From sequence record PZ452610.1: 64,000 nt of DNA. The stretch is one strand, 5' to 3'. Source of the stretch: a phage. A program made the position numbers and the translations under genes. Below are positions 1 to 64,000 of the stretch, in pieces (the first letter of the stretch is position 1; the number at the start of each line of letters is the position of its first letter). Below the pieces are notes generated by a model, which was given only the letters and a program-made list of their open reading frames with translations, was not told where the DNA came from and ran no database searches.

Positions 1-53
1 AGTGATACAAATATTGTTAAAAGACCAATTCGGTTGGTTTCGCCTAATTTCAT
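1..53 (-). CDS. hypothetical protein, N-terminal fragment (gene runs off window start)
   Basis: ATG at 53..51 (MKLGETNRIGLL...) with GAGGAG RBS and early promoter cassette upstream; continues past position 1. Confidence 0.35.
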   Translation of the reverse strand, partial: MKLGETNRIGLLTIFVS

Positions 54-73
54 AATATTCTCCTCATGTTTTA

Positions 74-110
74 ATAGGACTACTATAACATAGTCCTATC
101 AGTTTGTACA
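74..110 (-). promoter_or_regulatory. early-type promoter with palindromic stem-loop (PeSL-like cassette)
   Basis: Inverted repeat TAGGACTA/TAGTCCTA around minus-sense TATAGT -10, -35-like GTACAA ~17 nt upstream. Confidence 0.5.
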
Positions 111-111
111 C

Positions 112-312
112 TTATTTTGACATTTCTTCGATATCACGACGATACCCGTCACGAACTTCACGAAGAGCTTCAAGGCCACACATAGGCTCGATGCCAGTAA
201 TGTGAACTTGATTAATCTGATACTCTACATCTTCTAACTGAGCGAAAATGTAACGACGTTCTGCTGCACAGCCAGGTTTAGCTTTACCGAAACGTTTATT
301 CAAAGTAGTCAT
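112..312 (-). CDS. hypothetical small early protein
   Basis: ORF 112..333; preferred start ATG 312 (MTTLNKRF...) preceded by GGAG RBS; same leader/ATG ACT start as ORFs at 4923 and 41355. Confidence 0.5.
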   Translation of the reverse strand: MTTLNKRFGKAKPGCAAERRYIFAQLEDVEYQINQVHITGIEPMCGLEALREVRDGYRRDIEEMSK

Positions 313-343
313 TTTGTATCTCCATTCACTCATTTGTTTTGAT

Positions 344-379
344 AGGTCTATAGTATCAACAACTACAGACCTTGTAAAC
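344..379 (-). promoter_or_regulatory. early-type promoter cassette
   Basis: plus gtaaac (minus GTTTAC -35) and tctatagta (-10 region) upstream of ORF 112..312. Confidence 0.45.
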
Positions 380-391
380 AGTTTGGTGAAA

Positions 392-1348
392 TTATTTGAA
401 AGGTTTTACCATATGAAAATTTTGTTTGAAACGCTTGACGTAATCGTCGTGTCCTAAGCTTTGATACATACTTACTACTTTGCCATAGTTCTCCCAGGCA
501 TACTCACGGAACCAGCCTGATGTGATTGAAGTACAGACCTTTTCTAATGCCATCATAAAACTATCACGAGGATGGATTTCAAAGCCATTAGGAATCTGAG
601 AACGTTCTAACGCTAGTACACATGTTTCTTCATATACACCGGCCAATTTGACCATTTCCGGAAGTGATTCAAACTTCTCGCGTGAGGTCATTACTTCAGA
701 ACCGTCTTTCATATAAAACGTATAAGCCGGACGGTCTGTTAGTGCAATGGCTTCATGAATAGTATCATGGTCATATGTATAGATGTCATCTTTAAAGAAC
801 GCACTTTTAGAAGTGTCAAGAACCGGGTGAGCATAGTTCAAGGTTTCTTTCTGGCGTTTCAGCATAATTTCAGTAAGTTCATCGTTAAGTGTAACACCTT
901 TACCACGAAGATACTGAATATGGTTCATAGTCTTTAAAAAGAATGGATTATTTTTCTTGAAACGATGAGACATCTTAATTGCAAGACATATCTCAGGAGT
1001 TGCCCAGTAAAACCCGTTCAAACGGTCTTTAGTCAAATTTTTCTTGGCGTATTTTAAAAGGTCATAAGAAGACGTGAAATCTTCAGGAGTGAGTTCACCG
1101 ACTAATTCACGGACATTAGTGATTGCCGGAACAATATATGCTTCAAAATGAGTTTCGCGTCCATTATGGAAGCATTTGAAAACTTGGACATCAGGGTTAT
1201 CTTGGTGAACATATACACCCATCATTTGATTTTTGAATGCATTCCAAGAACCTTGGTCCGCAATAAAGTCCCAATCACTATTTTTAATAGCGCTAGAATC
1301 AATAAGACCGTGATAGTGAAGTGCACGAGAACCAATAACTAACATCAT
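392..1348 (-). CDS. hypothetical protein, possible nucleotidyltransferase-fold N-terminus
   Basis: 318 aa ORF, ATG ATG start with GAGGAA RBS; N-terminal GS...SDWD arrangement loosely resembles Pol-beta-type NTase motif (weak, from inspection only). Confidence 0.6.
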   Translation of the reverse strand: MMLVIGSRALHYHGLIDSSAIKNSDWDFIADQGSWNAFKNQMMGVYVHQDNPDVQVFKCFHNGRETHFEAYIVPAITNVRELVGELTPEDFTSSYDLLKYAKKNLTKDRLNGFYWATPEICLAIKMSHRFKKNNPFFLKTMNHIQYLRGKGVTLNDELTEIMLKRQKETLNYAHPVLDTSKSAFFKDDIYTYDHDTIHEAIALTDRPAYTFYMKDGSEVMTSREKFESLPEMVKLAGVYEETCVLALERSQIPNGFEIHPRDSFMMALEKVCTSITSGWFREYAWENYGKVVSMYQSLGHDDYVKRFKQNFHMVKPFK

Positions 1349-1376
1349 AATATTTTCCTCGGATTAATTCATTAAC

Positions 1377-1616
1377 TTAAATTTCACGACATGCGATATT
1401 ATATTCATCCCAGAGGTCATCATGTGAAGCCTCTACCAATGGAACGATTGTACCGTTTATGTCTTCATTATAAGGGCAAATTGTACAGTGCGCATCTTCG
1501 AATCGGATGCCTTTGTGTTCAGATTTTTTATAACGCATATCGAATATCTTTGCAAACTTTTCACGAGTAATGGTTTTACCAACCACTTTGGTTCCGATAC
1601 TTTCGTAATAAATCAT
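1377..1616 (-). CDS. hypothetical protein
   Basis: 79 aa ORF immediately downstream of early promoter cassette 1636..1674; Cys-containing (CTICPY). Confidence 0.5.
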   Translation of the reverse strand: MIYYESIGTKVVGKTITREKFAKIFDMRYKKSEHKGIRFEDAHCTICPYNEDINGTIVPLVEASHDDLWDEYNIACREI

Positions 1617-1635
1617 TGTGGACTCTATTTGTTTT

Positions 1636-1674
1636 GATAGGACTACTATAACATAGCCCTATCTTGTTGTAAAC
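1636..1674 (-). promoter_or_regulatory. early-type promoter with palindromic stem-loop (PeSL-like)
   Basis: gataggactactataacatagccctatc palindrome plus gtaaac (-35 GTTTAC on minus). Confidence 0.5.
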
Positions 1675-1678
1675 TGTT

Positions 1679-1876
1679 TTAGCAAGAATAACTAGATGAT
1701 ACCCAGCCTTGAACAGTGATACTATTGTGGGATAATGAGATCGCGTCCTGGAGATTCAGACCTGCGTTATCTTCAATCCATAATGTAACTTCTTCGCGTT
1801 CTTCTGTTGCAATTTGGAACAGGTTTTCCAGAGCAGCTACTGCCGTACGTACAGCACAATCTAATTCGCGAGACAT
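1679..1876 (-). CDS. small protein with conserved C-terminal GWVSSSYSC tail (family member 3)
   Basis: 65 aa; ATG at 1876 preceded by TAAGGAA; C-terminus shared with the two upstream ORFs. Confidence 0.6.
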   Translation of the reverse strand: MSRELDCAVRTAVAALENLFQIATEEREEVTLWIEDNAGLNLQDAISLSHNSITVQGWVSSSYSC

Positions 1877-1885
1877 ATTGTTTCC

Positions 1886-2158
1886 TTAGCAAGTGTGAGA
1901 AGATGCGACCCAACCACCAGTTTCGAGGCTCAGGTTGTAGTCGTATTGGTAAACGTCAGCCCATTCAGCATAACCGTTTTTTGTACAACGTTCAAGATCG
2001 GCTTTAAGATGTCCGGGTGAATGATAGGTTCCACCCATACCATAAGCTGGGTACAAGTTGAATGTTGTGTTTTGTTTATCAGCAATTTCTTTGGCAGCCT
2101 CAATAGCTGCATAGATTTTTGCTACAGCTTCAGCCAGTTCGGTTTGTTCTTTAGACAT
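1886..2158 (-). CDS. small protein with conserved C-terminal GWVASSHTC tail (family member 2)
   Basis: 90 aa; ATG at 2158 preceded by TAAGGAA; translationally coupled to neighbours. Confidence 0.6.
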   Translation of the reverse strand: MSKEQTELAEAVAKIYAAIEAAKEIADKQNTTFNLYPAYGMGGTYHSPGHLKADLERCTKNGYAEWADVYQYDYNLSLETGGWVASSHTC

Positions 2159-2167
2159 AATGATTCC

Positions 2168-2473
2168 TTAGCACAACGCAGAAGACGAAACCCAAGCACC
2201 TTCAGTAATAACGTAACCATTACCTTCACGCTTAACATCACCACCATTATTTTCAATTTCATTTTTCATCCACTGGGATACGATTTCACCCTTAGGATAA
2301 TAAGTACGACCGCTACCATAATCACCTACAGAAAATGATACGGCATATTGGTCTGCGATCTTTGTTGCTTCTTCTTCGATGCGTTCAGCTTGATTCAGAA
2401 GTTTATAAATTGCATCTGAAGCGGATTTGGCATCATTAAACTCTGGTACTTTAATTTCAATAATCTTACTCAT
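2168..2473 (-). CDS. small protein with conserved C-terminal AWVSSSALC tail (family member 1)
   Basis: 101 aa; start overlaps stop of upstream ORF (ATGA); shares GxxYxPxG and C-terminal tail with paralogs. Confidence 0.6.
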   Translation of the reverse strand: MSKIIEIKVPEFNDAKSASDAIYKLLNQAERIEEEATKIADQYAVSFSVGDYGSGRTYYPKGEIVSQWMKNEIENNGGDVKREGNGYVITEGAWVSSSALC

Positions 2474-2829
2474 TTTCTACATTCCTTAATAAAGTTTTCG
2501 ATTGTTTCATTTTCACGTTTAGCTAGGAGTTCATTATAACTAATCATTTGAGAAGCGTAAACCTTTTTATTTTTCTTGTTATGGTTTATAAAATCGTAGT
2601 AAAAATAGACTACAGTACAAAATGATGCGATGGATGCAAAGGCTTGGGTATACCGTAAGTCCTGCCATTGGTCTGTGAATCCGCCAGTGTTCCCTATAAA
2701 TCCTAACACAACGCCGTCAATAAGAAATCCAACTAATCCAAAGGCAAATCCCATGCCAATACTCATAATAAAAATTAGAATGTTCTCACCAAGAGAAGGC
2801 CATACGGTTAAGAGTTGAGGCTTTTGCAT
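2470..2829 (-). CDS. putative small membrane protein
   Basis: 119 aa with long hydrophobic stretch (IFIMSIGMGFAFGLVGFLIDGVVLGFIG). Confidence 0.55.
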   Translation of the reverse strand: MQKPQLLTVWPSLGENILIFIMSIGMGFAFGLVGFLIDGVVLGFIGNTGGFTDQWQDLRYTQAFASIASFCTVVYFYYDFINHNKKNKKVYASQMISYNELLAKRENETIENFIKECRK

Positions 2830-3023
2830 CTTATTTCCTTAACGAATTCCATAGCTTCTTCATATTCATACTTTTTAACAGCTTCATCATACTGAGCTTG
2901 GGCTTTTGCGCACTGAACTTTCCATTCTCTTAATCGGGCTCTGTGATGACGTCCTTGGTACCAATATCCCATCCAGTTAATAGGCATTAATAAAAACGGT
3001 ACAATAAGTGGTGCGACGAACAT
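2808..3023 (-). CDS. putative small membrane protein
   Basis: 71 aa, N-terminal hydrophobic helix (FVAPLIVPFLLMPINWMGYW) then charged tail; weak RBS. Confidence 0.45.
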   Translation of the reverse strand: MFVAPLIVPFLLMPINWMGYWYQGRHHRARLREWKVQCAKAQAQYDEAVKKYEYEEAMEFVKEIRCKSLNS

Positions 3024-3064
3024 TAATGAAAATGCTGCATCAGACGATATAACTTCACTAGAAT

Positions 3065-3205
3065 CTAAAACGGCTCCCCTATAATCATAAAGATTAAAAA
3101 TGCTAAAGCTAAAATAGGGCCAAATAGTACTTCATTTGGGATTAATTTACGCTTGTATTCATATGCCCAGGGCTTAATTGGCATGTACAGGGTTGGCTTT
3201 GACAT
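3065..3205 (-). CDS. possible 46-aa membrane peptide
   Basis: ATG at 3205, hydrophobic core VLFGPILALAFLIFMIIG; overlaps 3' end of ORF 3174..3770; weak RBS. Confidence 0.25.
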   Translation of the reverse strand: MSKPTLYMPIKPWAYEYKRKLIPNEVLFGPILALAFLIFMIIGEPF

Positions 3206-3770
3206 ATTCTCTACATTCCATAATAAATTGCTCAAGGATTAAATTGTTAGTGAAATTAGGACTAACAACCATAGTTTCATAAAGCGCATCAATAGCACTT
3301 AAAGCATCAACTCTTTTAAGCAAAGGCTTGCCTTCATACATAGTTTCAGAATCGACGATTAACGTAAAGTAGTATTTTTTATTATCGACTAGAACTTCTG
3401 TATCGATATAAAACATATTAGACCTCAGAAGCTTATCTCTAAAACCATAATAATCTTCAGAGCGTTCGCTAATATATTCCCATTCGGTGTTTAAACAACA
3501 AACAGACCACGTAGGAGCAACGAAATCAGTGAATCTAATATCATGGTCTACAACTAGTTTAGCAATAGCTCCGATATCATGAATCATAATACCCGGGGCT
3601 AATAAAGATTTTCGGTTATTTGCGTATTCAGTTGTCTCATAAGAAGACGACCAGTACCATTTACGCCCGGTTGCAACATATCGTAATGAATCAACTAAAG
3701 ACGTAGGTGGATTTACCTTATCTCGGAACTCTTCGAACATTGAGTCAATATCATTATTTTGGTTTCGCAT
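3174..3770 (-). CDS. hypothetical protein
   Basis: Track ORF 3174..3791 starts at TTG; preferred ATG 3770 (MRNQNND...) with AGGAG RBS directly after terminator hairpin. Confidence 0.6.
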   Translation of the reverse strand: MRNQNNDIDSMFEEFRDKVNPPTSLVDSLRYVATGRKWYWSSSYETTEYANNRKSLLAPGIMIHDIGAIAKLVVDHDIRFTDFVAPTWSVCCLNTEWEYISERSEDYYGFRDKLLRSNMFYIDTEVLVDNKKYYFTLIVDSETMYEGKPLLKRVDALSAIDALYETMVVSPNFTNNLILEQFIMECREYVKANPVHAN

Positions 3771-3789
3771 GTTAACTCCTTTATTATCC

Positions 3790-3811
3790 AAAAGGAGGAC
3801 CGGAGTCCTCC
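3790..3811 (-). terminator. rho-independent terminator hairpin
   Basis: GGAGGAC-cgga-GTCCTCC perfect hairpin; T-run on minus strand downstream. Confidence 0.6.
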
Positions 3812-3819
3812 GTATTATT

Positions 3820-4413
3820 TTATTTCAAAGAGTTAATATATTCTTGTACATCAGCAGAAGTGGTTTCGACACCGGCTGGAGTGCCATTGAATGTTTCGAC
3901 ACGAGTCAGAGTGTCTTCGATATCAACCTTAGTCAGTGCAGCAATTTCAATCACATCATCAGCCGTAGAGATACCAAGAGCATTGGCTGCTCGAGTTTCA
4001 CGAATGTATTCGAGTTTGATTGCCAGATTCTGACGAGCATCATCAAGTTCAACCACCTTACGAGCAATTTCAATTCGCATAGCGGCATAACCGTCAGCTT
4101 TTGTATTAAGTTGTTCGGCAGTTCGACGATACAGAAGACCAAGCTTAGCATGCATGGTAACATCTTGTCCTTCAGCCAGGAGCTTACGAATTTCACGTTC
4201 CTTAGAAGCGGCTTGCTTGTTCTTTTCATTAACAAGTTCGCGAATACGTTTTTCTTCATTAATAGATTTAACAGAAGCCGTTTTTAGTTCTTTGATTTGG
4301 GTAATCAACTTATCTGCGGCTGCGTTATACTGTTCTTCGACAGTCAGATTTTTAGCCATAGCAGTACCCAGTTTAGTGCGGATGAATTCAACAAGTTTCT
4401 TCAGTGTGTTCAT
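3820..4413 (-). CDS. coiled-coil protein (PspA/IM30-like appearance, unverified)
   Basis: Track start is TTG at 4428; preferred ATG 4413 (MNTLKK...); heptad-rich, highly charged sequence. Confidence 0.55.
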
Positions 4414-4483
4414 ATTATTACCTTTCAATTGGTGGTTTATTATCCAACGAGAGCATTATACTCTGCTCTCAAGAGTTTGTAAA

Positions 4484-4711
4484 TTATTTTTTAATCAAAT
4501 TGACATAAAACTTGGCGTCTTCGGGGTGCATGCCTTCGCAGTATTCTTCAACCATGAACTTCTTAACAGCTTCATAAGGACCACTCAGATTAAGCTCAGT
4601 TGTCCAGAACTTGGAATCTTGTACTGAATCGATACGAACTTCAGGGTGACGGTTGCGAATAACTTCTTCTGTGTATTCATAATCAACGACATCAATACTA
4701 ACTGTAGCCAT
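4484..4711 (-). CDS. hypothetical protein
   Basis: 75 aa, ATG with GAGGAG RBS, promoter-like element 4736..4770 upstream. Confidence 0.55.
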   Translation of the reverse strand: MATVSIDVVDYEYTEEVIRNRHPEVRIDSVQDSKFWTTELNLSGPYEAVKKFMVEEYCEGMHPEDAKFYVNLIKK

Positions 4712-4735
4712 TTTGTTTCTCCTCTCGATTTAATG

Positions 4736-4770
4736 TGATTACTATAACATAAACTTACTTAGATGTAAAT
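4736..4770 (-). promoter_or_regulatory. early-type promoter
   Basis: minus-sense ATTTAC ... TATAGT upstream of ORF 4484..4711. Confidence 0.4.
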
Positions 4771-4923
4771 TATTTCAACGTCACCTTTAGCTGCTTTATA
4801 ACCTTCAGCCCAAGATACAACAGAGTTTTTATCTGAGGATTCAAATTCAGGCATTGGACTTTCACCAATATTCACACAGTATGTTTCTTCATTTTCATCG
4901 AACCAAATAATTAAAGTAGTCAT
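4759..4923 (-). CDS. hypothetical 54-aa protein
   Basis: ATG at 4923 (MTTLIIWFDENEETYC...) with AGGAG RBS inside the 47-bp cassette; below track length cutoff. Confidence 0.45.
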   Translation of the reverse strand: MTTLIIWFDENEETYCVNIGESPMPEFESSDKNSVVSWAEGYKAAKGDVEIIYI

Positions 4924-4963
4924 TTTGTTTACTCCTCTGTAGTTGATAAGTCTATAGTATCAC
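4917..4963 (-). repeat. 47-bp promoter/RBS/start cassette, identical copy at 41349..41395
   Basis: tagtcattttgtttactcctctgtagttgataagtctatagtatcac identical at both loci by direct comparison. Confidence 0.85.
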
Positions 4964-4991
4964 CATCCTTGGTGCTTGTACATCATTATTT

Positions 4992-5297
4992 TTAATTTTT
5001 CCAACTTAACAACTTGTAGTGTCCTTCATTCGTACGAGGTTTATCCCAAGAAATACTAATATATGATTCGCTATCAATAGAAGTCGCCGGGTTTTTCTCT
5101 ACCGTAAGACCTTCACTTTCCAGCCATTCAATAGTATTTGCGCATAAATCTGAAGAACACCTCATCGGAAACTGGCAAGATTTTTCACCTTTAGATGCTG
5201 CATCGTACATCTTTTCTAAAATACGCTTTTGCACGTTTTTAAAAATAGTTTCAGCAGATTCTTCAGATTTTTTATTCAGTTCAGTGTAAAGACTCAT
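4992..5297 (-). CDS. hypothetical protein
   Basis: 101 aa ORF, ATG at 5297 with GAGGAAAA RBS and cassette 5316..5354 upstream. Confidence 0.55.
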   Translation of the reverse strand: MSLYTELNKKSEESAETIFKNVQKRILEKMYDAASKGEKSCQFPMRCSSDLCANTIEWLESEGLTVEKNPATSIDSESYISISWDKPRTNEGHYKLLSWKN

Positions 5298-5315
5298 AAC
5301 ATTTTCCTCTATGGT

Positions 5316-5354
5316 TGATAAGTCTATAGTATCATGTCCTTAGAAGAAGTAAAC
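5316..5354 (-). promoter_or_regulatory. early-type promoter cassette
   Basis: ttgataagtctatagtatca shared 20-mer with cassettes at 4943 and 41376; gtaaac -35 on minus. Confidence 0.45.
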
Positions 5355-5390
5355 ATCTTTATGAAATATTTTTATGCCCTAGATACCAAA

Positions 5391-5414
5391 AGGCCCCAAC
5401 CATAAGGAAGGGGC
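5391..5414 (-). terminator. rho-independent terminator
   Basis: GGCCCC...GGGGC hairpin; minus strand followed by T-run (plus aaaa 5387..5390). Confidence 0.55.
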
Positions 5415-5420
5415 ATTCTA

Positions 5421-5885
5421 TTATTTAATTTGTTTAGCAGACCAGATACGGTCTTTAATAAGTTTTTGGATATCTTCAACATACTCAAGGCTATGAGCGT
5501 GAGGATTATCTTTGAAGCTATGTGCTCGTGCCAGTTTCTGGCCTTCTGTTTTGATTACTAAAAGCTCTTTAAGAATTGCTTCATACTTAGAAATAATTCC
5601 TTTGGCGATATTTTTTTCTTGAGCTGCTTTAGGGTCTGTTTTTGGCGCAGGTGCTTTACCTGTAGCTTTCTGGAACAATTCACCTGATGCAGCTAGGCTT
5701 TTAAAAACTCGGCTAACAGTATTAGCATTAGTAAAACCTTCGGCTTTAAAATCTCTAATAAAACGGAAACGTTCTTCATCAGAGGCGTCTTTGTAAGAAT
5801 ATTTACCTGCTTGAATTGCTGCAATCGCAGCGGCTTTTACATCTGAACTAGATTGTTCAGTCAAAAATTCAGCGTATGATTTCAT
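5421..5885 (-). CDS. putative capsid-packaged internal protein (CTS-like N-terminus)
   Basis: N-terminus MKSYAEFLTE resembles T4 internal-protein capsid targeting sequence MKTYQEFIAE with LxE cleavage site; basic 154 aa. Confidence 0.55.
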   Translation of the reverse strand: MKSYAEFLTEQSSSDVKAAAIAAIQAGKYSYKDASDEERFRFIRDFKAEGFTNANTVSRVFKSLAASGELFQKATGKAPAPKTDPKAAQEKNIAKGIISKYEAILKELLVIKTEGQKLARAHSFKDNPHAHSLEYVEDIQKLIKDRIWSAKQIK

Positions 5886-5930
5886 GTTGCTTTTCCTAAG
5901 TTAATTAACTTATCTATTTATTATTATGCC

Positions 5931-5957
5931 AAAAAGCCCCGACCTTTCGGAAGGGGC
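5931..5957 (-). terminator. rho-independent terminator
   Basis: GCCCC-gacctttcggaa-GGGGC hairpin; TTTTT on minus strand. Confidence 0.6.
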
Positions 5958-6269
5958 TAAGCCTTGCGGCAACCTTGTCGGGGTTCCACCTGCTAAGGCA
6001 AGTGTTTGTACGAAACGCCGGGATTCGAACCCGGTTATTAAGCAGTTGACGCTACTCAATATTTTTAAAAGGCCATATCTCGACCATATCCGAACGTTCC
6101 GTCAAAAACGCTACTCGGCTTACGGCAAAGATATTTCCTCGAATCGATAATTCTGTGCGCCGTTTCTGCTGTGATGTAAGGGGATATTAACAAATCGTAA
6201 AGATTTATTAAGACCAGTCCTTACTCAGGGAACATCAGTCCGACGACTTGCCGGTAGCGACCCGGCTTC
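5958..6269 (-). ncRNA. non-coding structured region with tRNA-like T-arm hairpin (possible small stable RNA or tRNA remnant)
   Basis: No credible ORF; minus-sense CCGGG-TTCGAAT-CCCGG canonical T-arm at 6016..6032 but no canonical cloverleaf; bounded by terminator. Confidence 0.3.
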
Positions 6270-6614
6270 TTATTTTGACATATCATCAATTTGCTCTCGA
6301 CGCCGACGCCATAGATTAATCGCTTCATTAACACATTCGGCGTTTGGTATATGACGGCAATAATATAATGATTCGCGTTTCTGGAACCGATGTTGCAATG
6401 GAATTTCGTTTAAAAGGTCTTTACGGTCAAAGTATTCAAAACCGGTTAACCCAGAACGGTTTTTAAGAAACTTCCAATGTCCGAATTAATTTTGAAAATA
6501 AACATAATCAGCATGTTGATATAACGAATTAATCAACCGGTCGGAAATAACTGTTTCACGTTCGTTAAAATAAAACGTTAAATCATGAACTACCAGATAA
6601 ACATTGCCTTTCAT
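6270..6614 (-). pseudogene. ORF interrupted by in-frame TAA (41 codons, stop at 6488..6486, then 72 sense codons)
   Basis: Same frame read through by eye: MKGNVYLVVHDLTF...YFQN*FGHWKFLKNRSG...DDMSK; second part has no ATG start. Confidence 0.45.
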
Positions 6615-6632
6615 ATTTTCCTCACTTAAAGT

Positions 6633-6709
<77 letters not shown>

Positions 6710-6712
6710 GAT

Positions 6713-6789
6713 TGGTGACCCAGACCAGATTCGAACTGGTAACCTTTCCCTTATGAGGGGACTGCTGCTAACCATTGAGCTACAGGGCC
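6713..6789 (-). tRNA. tRNA with CAU anticodon (Met or Ile-type)
   Basis: Canonical T-arm ACCAG-TTCGAAT-CTGGT, anticodon loop CUCAUAA, encoded CCA; acceptor and D stems have mismatches. Confidence 0.5.
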
Positions 6790-6794
6790 TAAAT

Positions 6795-6850
6795 AACTTT
6801 CTATTATGAAAGGCACTTTAGAGCACCTTTGGTAATAGAGGGTATGAATT
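6795..6850 (-). promoter_or_regulatory. sigma70-like promoter upstream of tRNA pair
   Basis: minus-sense TTACCA ... 17 nt ... CATAAT ending ~14 nt before tRNA 5' end. Confidence 0.3.
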
Positions 6851-6868
6851 AATAATAACACATAATTT

Positions 6869-7384
6869 TTAAAGCAAATCAATCATTTTAACAGTCGGCA
6901 AAACGATTTCTTCTTCAATATAAGCAAATTCAACACATTCAACTACACGCAAGAAATCATAATCATAATATTCAGAAGCATGGCCAAGAATATCAATGAG
7001 ACCTTCTGATACTAAATATCCGTTCTCACGGAACAGGTCAAATACACGTGATTCGTCTTCTTCAGATTTATTACCAAGGTCAACTTCAATATCAAAGACC
7101 TTTTTAATGAATTCTGGATAAAGATGGTCTGAGAACAGTCCTTCAACCAGATATTCGTAGATAATAAGCGAGCAATCACTGAATGGTGTATTACCACAGT
7201 AACGTTCAGCTTTAGTGCTAGAATGACTACTCTTAAATTTCTTCAAGAGATATTTAAACTGTTGGAGCTCATGCTCTTCTACACCAAATAATGTTTTGGT
7301 TTTATAGCTGTCGCCGTCATTTTCCGAAGTAGTGACATCAATTACGTAACCCTTAGGAATTGTACTACCTAAACAAATATTCAT
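6869..7384 (-). CDS. hypothetical protein
   Basis: 171 aa, ATG start; last gene of a 4-gene coupled operon. Confidence 0.55.
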   Translation of the reverse strand: MNICLGSTIPKGYVIDVTTSENDGDSYKTKTLFGVEEHELQQFKYLLKKFKSSHSSTKAERYCGNTPFSDCSLIIYEYLVEGLFSDHLYPEFIKKVFDIEVDLGNKSEEDESRVFDLFRENGYLVSEGLIDILGHASEYYDYDFLRVVECVEFAYIEEEIVLPTVKMIDLL

Positions 7385-7388
7385 TTAC

Positions 7389-7679
7389 TCACCGTACCAT
7401 ATTAATGTAGTTATATTCAATGCAACGTAATTTCAAAGGGTTCTTGAAAATATCATATTCAAGAGGGCCTGATTCAGTTTCAATAAAGAAATCAAAATTA
7501 ACTGTGTTAAATTTATTGTCTTCACAGAGTAATTTAACCTGTGAAGATGAACGGTCGATATAAACCTTTTCAACCTCAAAGTTAGTCAGAATACCGTAGT
7601 CATCGACTAGTGCTTTAGCTGCACGTTGGTCGCTTTCATATCCATTCTCAACGGATTTTACCTTAGCATAAAGAATCAT
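7389..7679 (-). CDS. hypothetical protein
   Basis: 96 aa; ATG overlaps stop of upstream ORF (ATGA). Confidence 0.55.
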   Translation of the reverse strand: MILYAKVKSVENGYESDQRAAKALVDDYGILTNFEVEKVYIDRSSSQVKLLCEDNKFNTVNFDFFIETESGPLEYDIFKNPLKLRCIEYNYINMVR

Positions 7680-8038
7680 GAATGTTCCACCACTTCAAAG
7701 GTATGAGCATCAACAATATGGTACCAGTCAAAATTTTCTTCCGCGTTTTTATAAATTTCGCGAAGAGCCTCAACAGTTTTTCCTGTAGCAACAAGGTCGT
7801 CAATACCGCCAAGAGGATAACAGTCGTAACCGGCAAACAGAATGAAATTAATAGTTTCTGTAGGGGCCGGATGCAGTGTACCATTGTCATCGACTACTTC
7901 AAAGAACATATAACCAGGCGATTTAGATTTAATCCAAGCCCATGCTTGAGCTGCTGAATCAAATGGTCTGCGTATCAAACGACAATCAGGGTCTTTAGAA
8001 GGATTTGCTTCAAAATCCGCATATACGTGATATTTCAT
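7676..8038 (-). CDS. hypothetical protein
   Basis: Track start is TTG at 8071; preferred ATG 8038 (MKYHVYADF...) with AAGGTGAG RBS right after upstream stop. Confidence 0.55.
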   Translation of the reverse strand: MKYHVYADFEANPSKDPDCRLIRRPFDSAAQAWAWIKSKSPGYMFFEVVDDNGTLHPAPTETINFILFAGYDCYPLGGIDDLVATGKTVEALREIYKNAEENFDWYHIVDAHTFEVVEHS

Positions 8039-8039
8039 T

Positions 8040-8225
8040 TTACTCACCTTTTGCAATTTTATCCATAACAATAGCGATTAAACCGATTAGAAATGCTACT
8101 ACCAATGAGATAGAATTTTCAGTTGTTGTCAGTAGTCCGCAAATGAATCCTACAAACATCGAAAAACTAAAAGCCATTGAAGCAATTACTACAGCAACAT
8201 TACGAATCAGTTCAGCGCGTTTCAT
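8040..8225 (-). CDS. small membrane protein
   Basis: 61 aa, two hydrophobic segments; promoter cassette 8249..8285 upstream. Confidence 0.5.
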   Translation of the reverse strand: MKRAELIRNVAVVIASMAFSFSMFVGFICGLLTTTENSISLVVAFLIGLIAIVMDKIAKGE

Positions 8226-8248
8226 TTTATTATCCTCTCATGTTTTGA

Positions 8249-8285
8249 TAGGACTACTATAACATAGTCCTATCATCATGTAAAC
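8249..8285 (-). promoter_or_regulatory. early-type promoter with palindromic stem-loop (PeSL-like)
   Basis: gataggactactataacatagtcctatc perfect palindrome; minus GTTTAC -35 and TATAGT -10 with 18-nt spacer. Confidence 0.55.
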
Positions 8286-8287
8286 TA

Positions 8288-8551
8288 TTAAATACCAGCT
8301 TCGCGTTTAACATAATCGACGTAAGCTTGGATAGCTTTCTTGCTGGTAATTTTTACCTGGCCACGACCATTGCCTTCTTTAGAGTTTTTCTTAACAACTA
8401 CATTACCATCTTTAACACCCCATACATGGACGTAAGTACCGATGTTTCGGTCGTAGAACATTGCATGGTCATTGTTGTAAGAGAATGATTCATAGTTCTC
8501 TGTCAAAGCAAAAGATTCGGATTCTGCGATAAATTCTTTATACGTTTTCAT
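8288..8551 (-). CDS. internal protein (capsid targeting sequence MKTYKEFIAE)
   Basis: N-terminus matches T4 IP capsid-targeting sequence with LxE/IAE cleavage context; 87 aa. Confidence 0.7.
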   Translation of the reverse strand: MKTYKEFIAESESFALTENYESFSYNNDHAMFYDRNIGTYVHVWGVKDGNVVVKKNSKEGNGRGQVKITSKKAIQAYVDYVKREAGI

Positions 8552-8574
8552 TTATTTTTCCGTTTGGTTGTTTT

Positions 8575-8613
8575 GATAGGACTACTATAACATAGCCCTA
8601 TCAAGATGTAAAC
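8575..8613 (-). promoter_or_regulatory. early-type promoter with palindromic stem-loop (PeSL-like)
   Basis: ttgataggactactataacatagccctatc plus gtaaac. Confidence 0.5.
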
Positions 8614-8616
8614 TAC

Positions 8617-8904
8617 TTACAGAAGAGTTTTTGCAATAATTTTAAGCTGAGCTACAGAAATATGCTTAGCTTTAAACAGTGCGGTCTCTTCAGCCGGAGA
8701 GATAACAATAGTAGCGCCATCTTTCTTAGCAGACCATCCATCCCCTAAGTAAACAGTACCTTTTACTTCTTCGCCGTCAACCAGACTAATCATTGGTTTA
8801 CCCTCACGTCCTTTATTTGCTTTAATAACTTCGGAAGTAAGGGTTGCTTCGGTCAGAGTAGAAACGTTAGCAACAGGTGATATAAATTCTTTATAGGTTT
8901 TCAT
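8617..8904 (-). CDS. internal protein (capsid targeting sequence MKTYKEFI)
   Basis: N-terminal CTS-like MKTYKEFISP...LTE; 95 aa; ipII/ipIII position next to 57B. Confidence 0.7.
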   Translation of the reverse strand: MKTYKEFISPVANVSTLTEATLTSEVIKANKGREGKPMISLVDGEEVKGTVYLGDGWSAKKDGATIVISPAEETALFKAKHISVAQLKIIAKTLL

Positions 8905-8930
8905 TTTATTTCCTTGAGGTTGTTTATTTG

Positions 8931-8969
8931 ATAGGATGATAGTATCACACCATCATACTTATGTAAACT
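8931..8969 (-). promoter_or_regulatory. early-type promoter cassette
   Basis: gataggatgatagtatcac plus gtaaac; near-identical to element at 57003..57041. Confidence 0.5.
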
Positions 8970-8981
8970 GTTTTGTGAAAA

Positions 8982-9667
<686 letters not shown>

Positions 9668-39470: not shown

Positions 39471-41033
39471 ATGACTACTATCAAAACTAAAGCTCAGCTC
39501 GTAGACAAATGGAAAGAACTGCTGGAAGGTGAAGGCCTGCCGGAAATCGCTAATAGCAAGCAGGCTATTATCGCTAAAATCTTCGAAAACCAGGAAAAAG
39601 ATTTCGAAGTATCCCCTGAATATAAAGACGAGAAAATCGCTCAGGCATTTGGTTCTTTCTTGACCGAAGCTGAAATTGGTGGTGACCATGGTTATAATGC
39701 TCAGAACATCGCAGCAGGTCAAACCTCTGGTGCAGTAACCCAAATTGGGCCAGCAGTTATGGGTATGGTTCGTCGTGCTATTCCTAATCTGATCGCTTTT
39801 GATATTTGTGGTGTTCAGCCTATGAACAGCCCTACCGGTCAGGTATTTGCTCTCCGTGCAGTATATGGTAAAGACCCTATCGCTGCTGACGCTAAAGAAG
39901 CTTTCCATCCGATGTATGCTCCAGATGCGATGTTCTCTGGTCAGGGTGCTGCTAAGAAATTCCCAGCTCTGGCTGCTAGCACACAAACCACAGTAGGTGA
40001 TATCTATACTCACTTCTTCCAGGAAACTGGTACTGTATATCTGCAAGCTTCTGTTCAAGTAACAATCGATGCGACCGATGCTGCTAAATTAGATGCCGAA
40101 GTTAAGAAACAAATGGAAGCTGGTGCACTGGTAGAAATCGCTGAAGGTATGGCTACTTCTATCGCTGAACTCCAGGAAGGTTTCAACGGTTCTACCGATA
40201 ACCCATGGAATGAAATGGGCTTCCGTATCGATAAACAAGTTATTGAAGCTAAATCTCGCCAGCTGAAAGCTGCTTACTCTATCGAATTAGCACAAGACCT
40301 CCGTGCAGTACACGGTATGGATGCTGATGCTGAACTGAGCGGTATTCTGGCTACAGAAATTATGCTAGAAATCAACCGTGAAGTTGTTGATTGGATTAAC
40401 TACTCAGCACAGGTTGGTAAATCTGGTATGACCCTGACTCCGGGTTCTAAAGCTGGTGTATTTGACTTCCAGGACCCGATTGATATCCGTGGTGCTCGTT
40501 GGGCCGGTGAAAGCTTTAAATCTCTGTTGTTCCAGATTGATAAAGAAGCAGTTGAAATTGCTCGTCAAACCGGTCGTGGTGAAGGTAACTTCATTATCGC
40601 TTCCCGTAACGTAGTTAACGTACTGGCTTCAGTTGATACTGGTATTTCTTACGCTGCACAGGGTCTGGCTTCCGGTTTTAATACCGACACTACTAAGTCT
40701 GTATTTGCCGGTGTACTTGGTGGTAAATACCGCGTATACATCGACCAGTATGCTAAACAGGATTATTTCACCGTTGGTTACAAAGGCGCTAACGAAATGG
40801 ATGCAGGTATTTACTATGCTCCTTACGTTGCACTTACCCCACTGCGTGGTTCTGATCCTAAGAACTTCCAGCCGGTAATGGGCTTTAAAACTCGTTACGG
40901 TATCGGTGTTAACCCGTTTGCTGAAAGTTCCCTGCAGGCTCCAGGTGCTCGCATCCAGTCCGGTATGCCATCTATCCTGAACAGCCTTGGTAAGAACGCT
41001 TACTTCCGCCGTGTATATGTAAAAGGCATCTAA
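39471..41033 (+). CDS. 23: gp23 major capsid protein
   Basis: 520 aa; closely matches T4 gp23 as recalled (e.g. GLPEIANSKQAIIAKIFENQEKDF). Confidence 0.97.
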   Translation: MTTIKTKAQLVDKWKELLEGEGLPEIANSKQAIIAKIFENQEKDFEVSPEYKDEKIAQAFGSFLTEAEIGGDHGYNAQNIAAGQTSGAVTQIGPAVMGMVRRAIPNLIAFDICGVQPMNSPTGQVFALRAVYGKDPIAADAKEAFHPMYAPDAMFSGQGAAKKFPALAASTQTTVGDIYTHFFQETGTVYLQASVQVTIDATDAAKLDAEVKKQMEAGALVEIAEGMATSIAELQEGFNGSTDNPWNEMGFRIDKQVIEAKSRQLKAAYSIELAQDLRAVHGMDADAELSGILATEIMLEINREVVDWINYSAQVGKSGMTLTPGSKAGVFDFQDPIDIRGARWAGESFKSLLFQIDKEAVEIARQTGRGEGNFIIASRNVVNVLASVDTGISYAAQGLASGFNTDTTKSVFAGVLGGKYRVYIDQYAKQDYFTVGYKGANEMDAGIYYAPYVALTPLRGSDPKNFQPVMGFKTRYGIGVNPFAESSLQAPGARIQSGMPSILNSLGKNAYFRRVYVKGI

Positions 41034-41057
41034 TCTTAATTGATTAAATCTTATTTT

Positions 41058-41087
41058 GGGAGACTTCGGTCTCCCATTTTTGGTTTT
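41058..41087 (+). terminator. rho-independent terminator after gene 23
   Basis: GGGAGAC-ttcg-GTCTCCC followed by ATTTTTGGTTTT. Confidence 0.7.
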
Positions 41088-41355
41088 ATTTCTGTGCAAT
41101 TTTGATGTAAGTTTTCAAAATATTTTGCCAATTAGGCATACCTTCTTGGACATATGCCGGAGAACCATCTTTGTTTTTGAATGATGCAAGTTTATCAGTG
41201 GCCCAATAACCTTTAGCTCGAGCTTCAGAATCAACTTTCATCCATACTTTGTTGAAGGCATTACCATTAACTTTTGCACCATATTTTTCTACTAACTTAA
41301 CTGCTTCAGCTTCCAGAACTTTTAAAGTATCTCGTAAGAAACGTGCTTTAGTCAT
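41086..41355 (-). CDS. hypothetical protein between genes 23 and 24 (T4 segD position)
   Basis: 89 aa basic protein (MTKARFLRDT...) driven by the 47-bp cassette; no GIY-YIG motifs visible. Confidence 0.55.
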   Translation of the reverse strand: MTKARFLRDTLKVLEAEAVKLVEKYGAKVNGNAFNKVWMKVDSEARAKGYWATDKLASFKNKDGSPAYVQEGMPNWQNILKTYIKIAQK

Positions 41356-41395
41356 TTTGTTTACTCCTCTGTAGTTGATAAGTCTATAGTATCAC
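41349..41395 (-). repeat. 47-bp promoter/RBS/start cassette, identical copy at 4917..4963
   Basis: Exact identity over 47 bp including RBS AGGAG and ATG ACT. Confidence 0.85.
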
Positions 41396-41415
41396 ATACC
41401 AAATACGTTGTAAAC
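41376..41415 (-). promoter_or_regulatory. early-type promoter cassette
   Basis: ttgataagtctatagtatcac ... gtaaac (minus GTTTAC -35, TACTAT -10). Confidence 0.5.
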
Positions 41416-41421
41416 AATCTT

Positions 41422-41429
41422 TATAAATA
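41422..41429 (+). promoter_or_regulatory. late promoter TATAAATA (gene 24)
   Basis: Exact TATAAATA 28 nt upstream of gp24 ATG. Confidence 0.6.
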
Positions 41430-41456
41430 ATCTATATCACATAAGGAAAAAATGCA

Positions 41457-42740
41457 ATGAGTAAAATCCAAAAATTATTGCGTGAATCTACAACGTCTAC
41501 TAGCAACTCAATTGGTCGCCCAAATCTCGTTGCTTTGACTCGCGCTACGACTAAATTAATATATTCTGACATTGTAGCAACACAAAGAACTAATCAACCT
41601 GTTGCTGCTTTTTATGGTATCAAATATCTTAACCCAGATAACGAATTCACATTTAAAACCGGTGCTACTTATGCTGGCGAAGTTGGATATGTAGACCGAG
41701 AAAAAATTACTGAACTCACAGAAGAATCAAAAGTCACACTAAATAAAGGTGATTTTTTCAAATATAATAATATCGTCTATAAAGTGTTAGAAGATACACC
41801 ATTTGCAGATATTCAAGAAAGTGATCTAGAATTAGCTCTTCAGATTGCAGTCGTTCATTTAAAGGTACGGTTATTTTCAGATGCAGCGGTAACAAGCAAA
41901 TTTGAAAGCTCTGATAGCGAAATTTCTGATGCAAGATTCCAGATTAATAAATGGCAAACTTCAGTCAAATCTCGCAAACTTAAAACTGGTCTCACGGTTG
42001 AATTAGCGCAAGATTTGGAAGCGAATGGATTTGATGCCCCTAACTTCTTAGAGGATTTGCTTGCTACTGAAATGGCTGATGAAATTAATAAAGATATTCT
42101 TCAGTCTTTAATTACTGTATCGAAACGTTATAAAGTTACTGGAATTACTGACACCGGATTTATTGACTTGAGCTATGCATCCGCTCCAGAAGCAGGTCGT
42201 TCATTATATCGAATGGTGTGTGAAATGGTATCACACATTCAAAAAGAGACAACTTATACTGCAACGTTTTGTGTAGCCTCAGCTCGTGCAGCTGCTATTC
42301 TTGCTGCTTCCGGTTGGTTAAAACATAAGCCAGAAGATGACAAGTATCTTTCACAAAATGCTTATGGATTCTTGGCAAATGGATTACCTCTTTACTGCGA
42401 TACCAACAGTCCGTTAGATTATGTTATTGTTGGTGTTGTAGAAAATATCGGCGAAAAAGAAATTGTAGGGTCCATCTTTTATGCTCCATACACTGAAGGA
42501 GTAGATTTAGATGACCCGGAACATGTTGGTGCATTTAAAGTTGTAGTTGATCCAGAAAGCTTGCAACCGTCTATCGGATTATTGGTTAGATATGCTTTAT
42601 CAGCAAATCCTTACACAGTAGCAAAAGACGAAAAAGAAGCGAGAATAATTGATGGTGGGGACATGGATAAAATGGCAGGACGTTCAGACTTGTCTGTTTT
42701 ACTCGGTGTTAAATTGCCTAAAATTATTATAGATGAATAA
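41457..42740 (+). CDS. 24: gp24 capsid vertex protein
   Basis: 427 aa as in T4. Confidence 0.95.
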   Translation: MSKIQKLLRESTTSTSNSIGRPNLVALTRATTKLIYSDIVATQRTNQPVAAFYGIKYLNPDNEFTFKTGATYAGEVGYVDREKITELTEESKVTLNKGDFFKYNNIVYKVLEDTPFADIQESDLELALQIAVVHLKVRLFSDAAVTSKFESSDSEISDARFQINKWQTSVKSRKLKTGLTVELAQDLEANGFDAPNFLEDLLATEMADEINKDILQSLITVSKRYKVTGITDTGFIDLSYASAPEAGRSLYRMVCEMVSHIQKETTYTATFCVASARAAAILAASGWLKHKPEDDKYLSQNAYGFLANGLPLYCDTNSPLDYVIVGVVENIGEKEIVGSIFYAPYTEGVDLDDPEHVGAFKVVVDPESLQPSIGLLVRYALSANPYTVAKDEKEARIIDGGDMDKMAGRSDLSVLLGVKLPKIIIDE

Positions 42741-63897: not shown

Positions 63898-63944
63898 TTG
63901 TTTGTTGGTACAGGTCTATAATAACATAACCTGTACCAAAGTAA
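63898..63944 (-). promoter_or_regulatory. early-type promoter with palindromic stem-loop (PeSL-like)
   Basis: GGTACAGGT ... ACCTGTACC perfect 9-bp inverted repeat around TATAAT/TTATAG, gtaaac -35. Confidence 0.5.
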
Positions 63945-64000
63945 ACTGTTTTATGCAACTTTAATCCAATTGTCTAAATTTAAAACACCTTTGGCTTTCA

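Follow-up and report, generated by a model that had tools for sequence, protein, structure and literature searches.

Identical copies of a 47-bp predicted early promoter/leader segment before two unrelated small genes of a Mosigvirus genome

Genes and features at the two sites

The window, i.e. the whole stretch of 64,000 nt of phage DNA analysed here, shows ~100% identity to Escherichia coli O157 typing phage 3 (NC_041863.1). This phage belongs to Mosigvirus, the RB69-like genus of T4-type phages. Two of its sites, which we call site 1 and site 2, carry a small minus-strand ORF behind the same 47-bp segment (Table 1). Site 1 lies in the variable e.x/tRNA/internal-protein (IP) region and holds a homologue of RB69 ORF145c (hereafter ORF145c); site 2 is the slot between g23 and g24. 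The matching GenBank record annotates the two ORFs, which Pfam and PHROGs place only in function-unknown families. A preliminary description of this DNA had called the two ORFs unrelated, and we agree with it on their coordinates as well as on their lack of relationship, as they give no BLASTP alignment and fall into different PHROGs (5461 vs 6003).

Table 1. Position of the features discussed in the text.
Feature	Position	Strand	Remarks
ORF 112-312 module	100..372	-	Absent from 6 of 9 compared Mosigviruses; junction at the P378 and P110 -35 boxes
Sister promoter P378	350..378	-	Before ORF 112-312; stem-loop encloses the -10
Sister promoter P4483	4455..4483	-	e.6 homologue; extra ORF enters here in SA79RD
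ORF145c + P4769 module	4726..4916	-	Absent from CCU7 and NHEP36; junction in repeated leader GAGGAG(T)AAACAAAATG(A/G)CTAC
Sister promoter P4769	4741..4769	-	Before the frd.3 homologue (4484-4711)
54-aa ORF (ORF145c)	4759..4923	-	RB69ORF145c / PST ORF130 homologue; phrog_5461, no assigned function
47-mer, copy 1	4917..4963	-	From the extended -10 through the ATG and the next 4 nt of the ORF145c homologue; exact match
Site-1 Shine-Dalgarno GAGGAG	4932..4937	-	Crossover point in NHEP36 and CCU7, where the cassette precedes frd.3
Site-1 extended -10 TGaTACTAT	4954..4962	-	
Site-1 -35 box TGTACA	4977..4982	-	17-nt spacer; outside the identical stretch; RB69 Pe:72567
Sister promoter P5353	5326..5353	-	21-nt exact run in common with the 47-mer
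Sister promoter P8284	8256..8284	-	11-12 bp stem-loop around the -10
Sister promoter P8612	8584..8612	-	With P8284, flanks an internal-protein ORF absent in AV111 and CCU7
Hairpin GGGAGAC-TTCG-GTCTCCC	41057..41076		g23 terminator, z -5.15; immediately follows the antisense 89-aa ORF at its 3' end
89-aa ORF	41086..41355	-	Antisense between g23 and g24; phrog_6003, no assigned function
47-mer, copy 2	41349..41395	-	From the extended -10 through the ATG and the next 4 nt of the 89-aa ORF; exact match
Site-2 Shine-Dalgarno GAGGAG	41364..41369	-	LF82-4 homology breaks exactly here
Site-2 -35 box TTTACA	41409..41414	-	17-nt spacer; outside the identical stretch; RB69 Pe:109605
g24 late promoter TATAAATA	41422..41429	+	8 bp upstream of the site-2 -35 box, opposite strand

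Read on the minus strand, both copies present the -10 region, ribosome-binding site and ATG ACT that the preliminary description had seen in them: an extended -10 (TGn followed by TACTAT), a Shine-Dalgarno sequence (SD) GAGGAG located 8 nt before the ATG, and ATG ACT A, so that ACT is codon 2 at both sites. The predicted transcription start, placed by spacing, is the A of TTATCAA at 4947 and 41379 (start region AGACTTATCAA), which would give a leader of ~27 nt, contained in the 47-mer. The 15 nt upstream of the -35 box are A/T-rich, with 14/15 A/T at site 1 (aattaaaaataatga) and 13/15 at site 2 (tatttataaagattg). Both sites correspond to early promoters predicted in RB69 with an HMM, Pe:72567 (score 33) and Pe:109605 (score 29.9), the latter being overlapped by the g24 late promoter Pl:109573 (Nolan 2006, PMC1524935). 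In the window too (41386-41429), the antisense early promoter has its upstream region overlapped by the g24 late promoter. The match to the early consensus and these earlier predictions point to the 47-mer being the core of a predicted immediate-early promoter joined to a strong translation start. A search of Rfam gave no match in 4400-5400, and only chance-level hits, far under the gathering scores, in 40900-41600.

Two further observations concern the surroundings of site 1. The frd.3 homologue (4484-4711; Pfam Phage_FRD3, E 6e-38) is found in the e.x region, and not beside frd as in T4; together with its own promoter it forms an insertion relative to PST, between two AATAATTTACA (-35) repeats. 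The window reads CCCC at 3076-3079, against CC in NC_041863.1, and the additional 2 bp split a 131-aa e.4-like ORF into 2808-3023 and 3065-3235; this homopolymer-length difference is possibly a sequencing or version difference.

Occurrence and age of the repeat

As the preliminary description had reported, the same 47 bp occur at 4917-4963 and 41349-41395, and our exact search found the sequence (TAGTCATTTTGTTTACTCCTCTGTAGTTGATAAGTCTATAGTATCAC on the plus strand, GTGATACTATAGACTTATCAACTACAGAGGAGTAAACAAAATGACTA in the minus-strand reading of both sites) at exactly these two places. No third site was detected in the 64,000-nt window at up to 3 mismatches, nor did any of 100 dinucleotide shuffles yield a match to the 47-mer. 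The repeat had been presented as a promoter cassette, which is only partly accurate: everything from the -10 to the start codon is shared, but the -35 box and the A/T-rich region upstream of it differ between the two sites. The repeat does not resemble a miniature transposable element, as its ends (GTGATAC... and ...ATGACTA) are not inverted repeats and the sequences on either side of the two copies have nothing in common that resembles a target-site duplication.

The 47-mer is found at 227 places in 142 phage records, all of them from Escherichia/Shigella phages of the Mosigvirus type, and it is conserved at both sites across this genus. A metagenome scan recovered 4 loci, only in the same two contexts as in the window; an exact scan of IMG/VR with a 30-nt core of the repeat gave no match. 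An assembly artefact is ruled out by the presence of the 47-mer in the 142 independent records and in metagenome contigs.

This conservation has exceptions. In RB69, the 47-mer is intact at site 1, and the site-2 copy shows 3 private substitutions. In phage LF82-4, the site-1 copy has 1 substitution, located in the SD, and its own site 2 is free of that change. Since each of these changes is confined to a single site, neither phage gives evidence of concerted evolution; the duplication is thus older than the sampled Mosigviruses, and the two copies now drift independently. As Mosigviruses diverge from one another by only 2-5%, finding 47 nt without a difference departs only a little from the neutral expectation, so that conservation does not by itself demonstrate selection on the 47-mer.

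A family of sister promoters

A pattern scan identified at least 13 similar early promoters in the window, all on the minus strand, with -35 starts at 110, 378, 1673, 4483, 4769, 4982, 5353, 8284, 8612, 8967, 41414, 57040 and 63945 (we name each promoter P followed by this position). Ten of the 13 lie within positions 1-9000, that is, in the e.x/tRNA/IP hyperplastic region. The degenerate copy that had been reported before ORF 112..312 is real and corresponds to one of them, P378 (350-378), which has TGATACTATAGAC and ACAAAATGACTACTT in common with site 1.

Over the segment equivalent to the 47-mer, the 13 cassettes have a mean identity of 66% (78 pairs), and the next best pair reaches 82%, vs 100% for the pair considered here. 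Exact runs are common to other pairs as well (35 nt for P1673/P8612, and 28, 27, 23 and 21 nt), the run of 47 nt being the longest. Chance and promoter consensus were considered as sources of the 47/47 match, and are ruled out by the shuffles and by the pairwise identities within the family. Thus, a copying event has to be added on top of family resemblance.

Seven of the sister promoters can fold into a hairpin: P110, P378, P1673, P8284, P8612 and P63945 have strong hairpins with the -10 in the loop (-15.5 to -20.6 kcal/mol, z -4.5 to -6.1), and P4483 has a weaker, seventh one (z -2.8). These hairpin promoters are located at 64-110, 332-378, 1627-1673, 4437-4483, 8238-8284, 8566-8612 and 63900-63945 (minus strand). 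One arm of the inverted repeat lies in the -35/-10 spacer and the other just past the -10, with no T-run after it, and the arms vary among promoters (GATAGGRCTA/TAGTCCTATC, TGGTACAGGT/ACCTGTACCA, AGGTCT/AGACCT and GAGAGC/GCTCTC). No significant stem-loop was found in the promoters of the two 47-mer copies (z -0.27 at site 1 and -0.88 at site 2), nor in the wider 130-nt cassettes (z -0.11 and +0.42, respectively). Near site 2, only the g23 terminator forms a strong hairpin.

[quoted passage not shown] As the positions of the sister hairpins match this layout, they are PeSL stem-loops, now found in a Mosigvirus. We also considered that hairpins enclosing the -10 might be a new feature, and rejected this, the layout being already described by Arbiol 2010 (PMC2839356).

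The two ORFs in other phages

At site 1, ORF145c is also present in many Tequatroviruses (T2, PST as ORF130, RB5 and others), with ~92% nucleotide identity, vs only ~79% for the neighbouring e.6. The Tequatrovirus orthologues keep the -35/spacer of site 1 (TGTACAAaCACCAAGGAcGGTG, 20/22), and have another -10 (TGTTATTAT) and another leader (…AAACAAATACAGAAACGGAGAAATAA), with indels; we searched these genomes for a second copy of this leader and found it to be single-copy. The higher similarity of ORF145c and its -35/spacer (~92%) compared with e.6 (~79%) suggests a fairly recent exchange of an ORF145c module (window 4759-4982) between the two genera.

At site 2, distant orthologues of the 89-aa ORF (32-37% amino acid identity) occupy the same slot in Dhakavirus and Gaprivervirus phages, with their own -10 and leader, and only the upstream region and the -35 box, beside the g24 late promoter, are conserved across genera. 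JS10, VR7 and SHFML-11 keep the site-2 upstream region and -35, and have a different sequence from the -10 into the ORF. The content of the slot is itself variable: a small ORF is found there in Mosig-, Dhaka- and Gapriverviruses, accompanied in LF82-4 by a homing endonuclease gene; SHFML-11 has a segD-like homing endonuclease gene with its own early promoter, and in RB3 the slot is empty. In RB69, a 1-bp deletion and a divergent stretch disrupt the 89-aa ORF (RB69 109291-109531), which is annotated as two very small ORFs, ORF188c and ORF189c.

As both ORFs are found at the same loci in other genera behind other leaders, it is the patch that moved, and the ORFs that were resident: the segment from the -10 to the ATG appears to have been exchanged between two resident genes.

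Junctions and cargo changes in related phages

For the 9.5-kb variable region, the versions of nine Mosigviruses were set against the window and their junctions surveyed. Fourteen of the 31 distinct junctions fall inside cassettes, which represent 9% of this region (binomial p = 1.4e-7), an enrichment confounded by the fact that cassettes make up almost all of the intergenic DNA and that gene-breaking junctions are removed by selection. The repeated sequence found at junctions is a stronger argument than this enrichment. For example, the absence of ORF145c and P4769 from two phages is bounded by two versions of the repeated leader (CAGAGGAGTAAACAAAATGACTAC vs GAGAGGAGAAACAAAATGGCTAC): in NHEP36, the cassette is identical through GAGGAG and is then directly followed by frd.3, and in CCU7 too the cassette meets frd.3 at the SD. 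For the ORF 112-312 module, made up of that ORF and one promoter, this part is played by the -35 boxes of P378 and P110 (Table 1). An extra ORF is inserted at P4483 in SA79RD. AV111 and CCU7 lack the IP ORF 8288-8551, and the corresponding junction falls between P8284 and P8612.

At site 2, homology between LF82-4 and the window ends at 41364, inside GAGGAG, and resumes at 41089, just beyond the stop codon of the ORF. In between, LF82-4 carries a JS10-type (Dhakavirus-type) allele of the ORF, 89% identical to JS10 at the nucleotide level, followed by the homing endonuclease gene. The preliminary description had proposed to look in related phages for a change of ORF behind a conserved cassette, and such changes do occur at both sites: site 1 precedes ORF145c or, in NHEP36 and CCU7, frd.3, and site 2 precedes the Mosigvirus-type ORF or, in LF82-4, the Dhakavirus-type allele with its homing endonuclease. 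The 30-nt core of the cassette is therefore found before four cargos, namely ORF145c, frd.3 and, in the g23/g24 slot, two ORF alleles.

Other variation was noted in these genomes. The IP-type ORFs 8288-8551 and 8617-8904 share an N-terminus, MKTYKEFI, of the capsid-targeting-sequence type, as well as their promoter/leader, and junctions in relatives at 8528 and 8878 fall within this common 5' coding stretch. Homing endonuclease genes are inserted beside tRNA genes in LF82-4 and AV116, insertions that the window does not have, and tRNA content varies, AV111 having an extra tRNA-Asn.

Origin of the repeated segment

We consider it probable (roughly 0.7) that, in an ancestor of Mosigvirus, one early promoter/leader received a patch of ~40-47 bp from another by copying, within a family of look-alike promoters that serve as crossover points for ORF modules. 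The 47-mer would ensure immediate-early transcription by the host sigma-70 polymerase and efficient translation of two unrelated small ORFs. Its copying would likely have proceeded by ectopic homologous recombination or gene conversion, primed by short motifs shared within the family (TGnTAYTAT, AGACYTATCAA and GAGGAG...ATG), and the copies may since have been kept alike by low divergence and by selection on promoter and ribosome-binding site. Between related phages, the look-alike segments would likewise allow crossovers through which small ORF modules are gained, lost or swapped. Both the duplication and the mosaic of -35/spacer, -10/leader and ORF fit homologous recombination at short shared motifs during recombination-dependent replication, and T4-type recombination is known to need less than 50 bp of homology (Arbiol et al., PMC2839356). 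As for the direction of the putative copying, a transfer from site 2 to site 1 is suggested by the existence of a donor for the Mosigvirus leader in the same genome, the Tequatrovirus leader being single-copy; a transfer from site 1 to site 2 is suggested by codon 2, as ACT is native to ORF145c and AAC is found in the site-2 orthologues of JS10 and VR7 and in the site-2 allele of LF82-4.

Under a strict PeSL hypothesis, the 47-mer would instead be a complete mobile unit, promoter and stem-loop together, that delivered both ORFs, e.g. by mini-circles. Six to seven sister promoters do have a stem-loop enclosing the -10, the commonest layout according to Arbiol 2010 (PMC2839356), and ORF modules have been gained and lost at sister promoters. 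However, neither 47-mer copy has a significant stem-loop, the -35 box and upstream region are outside the identity, and both ORFs are present at the same loci, with another -10/leader, in phages of other genera (PST, T2, JS10, VR7). In addition, the copies are separated by 36 kb that include essential genes, which rules out that together they delimit a single excisable module. We regard this hypothesis as unlikely. The same facts apply to the proposal, made in the preliminary description, of mobile cassettes shuffling ORFs: crossovers do occur at cassettes in relatives, but the 47-mer is not a discrete unit carrying these two ORFs.

The cargo swaps, for their part, could result mainly from co-conversion by homing endonucleases in mixed infections, junctions at SDs and promoters being merely the ends of viable conversion tracts. 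Such genes are indeed found beside the swapped site-2 ORF in LF82-4, in the same slot in SHFML-11 (segD-like) and by the tRNAs in LF82-4 and AV116, and co-conversion may contribute at site 2. It cannot account for the site-1 events, however: neither site has an endonuclease gene in the window, and the events involving ORF145c, ORF 112-312, frd.3 and the IP ORF have promoter/leader repeats at both junctions and no endonuclease nearby. It also leaves the 47-bp identity itself unexplained. We find it very unlikely as the main explanation. We give least credence to co-regulation without copying, in which identity would reflect functional convergence or constraint through selection on a cis-element shared by both leaders, such as a RegB cleavage site at GGAG or a RegA-type operator. 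GGAG belongs to the motif class cut by T4 RegB; it is present within the SD, and the 47-mer is invariant in most of the 142 records. Yet sister leaders with the same motifs are only ~66% identical, the private substitutions described above (one in the SD of LF82-4, three in RB69) do occur, Rfam gave no match and no significant fold was found, and constraint alone does not generate 47/47 identity between unrelated loci.

Relation to known systems

The preliminary description had likened the repeat to PeSLs, and most of this comparison stands. PeSLs (PMC2839356, PMC4122927) are repeated early promoters with an A/T-rich upstream region and with an SD and start codon at the 3' end, and both sites have all of these: TGTACA-17-TACTAT at site 1 and TTTACA-17-TACTAT at site 2, each with TGn, make an early promoter that had been predicted in RB69. 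PeSLs are clustered in hyperplastic regions before small ORFs of unknown function, and so is the repeat family of the window; site 2 is in the capsid block but occupies a variable slot. Indel and replacement junctions of close relatives fall in PeSL motifs, as they do here, where cassettes are nearly equivalent to the intergenic space, and the ORF cargo changes. [quoted passage not shown] The definition of PeSLs further includes a terminator or attenuator role for the stem-loop, mini-circles formed when neighbouring copies recombine, and promoter and terminator activity in reporter assays. What the comparison lacks is the stem-loop in the two 47-mer copies themselves, as their z values indicate; it is the one sequence feature of PeSLs missing from them, and they can thus be placed in a PeSL-type family of early promoters, as putative members devoid of a stem-loop or as fragments. 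They also differ from PeSLs in that identity is limited to the sub-segment from -10 to ATG, and in that one copy runs antisense to late genes, within the block of capsid genes.

Neither PeSL paper (PMC2839356, PMC4122927) mentions RB69-like phages. The predicted promoters Pe:72567 and Pe:109605 (PMC1524935) are the same two sites on the same strand in RB69, the type Mosigvirus, obtained with an HMM built from the T4 early consensus, although the RB69 site-2 copy is off at 3 positions and its ORF is broken. The text and supplement of Nolan 2006 (additional file 3, PMC1524935) give coordinates only, with no mention of the shared stretch from -10 to ATG. The IP locus of T-even phages offers another parallel: as relayed in PMC2839356 and PMC4122927, Repoila et al. 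1994 described there unrelated small ORFs shuffled behind a conserved promoter, leader and first codons. The IP genes of the window (starts 8551 and 8904, both MKTYKEF...) show the pattern as thus relayed, with junctions at P8284/P8612. However, IP genes also share a functional N-terminal capsid-targeting peptide, whereas the two ORFs considered here have only Met-Thr in common and are 36 kb apart.

The phenomenon is therefore the published PeSL-mediated modular shuffling; it is already known, and the 47-mer pair is a further case that reveals no new kind of element. A more far-reaching reading, which we think very unlikely, is that the patch was fixed because it places two unrelated ORFs, one of them antisense in the capsid block, under one expression programme, promoter sub-modules being exchanged genome-wide. 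If this were true, both ORFs would share the same promoter strength, RegB-type cleavable SD and translation rate, and sub-modules (upstream/-35, -10/start region, SD/ATG) would be exchanged combinatorially and beyond neighbours, as a genome-wide currency rewiring early expression.

PeSL shuffling, described for RB49/phi1, T4/PST and KVP40/nt-1, is here extended to the RB69-like genus, with junctions resolved at the nucleotide level: crossovers take place at the -35 box, at the -10 boundary and at the Shine-Dalgarno box inside the promoter/leader, so that promoter halves, leaders and ORFs assort independently. Copying of the 47-mer would further mean that patches can be transferred between sites 36 kb apart. 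In annotation, the promoter family can be relied on to flag early transcription units and slots with variable genes.
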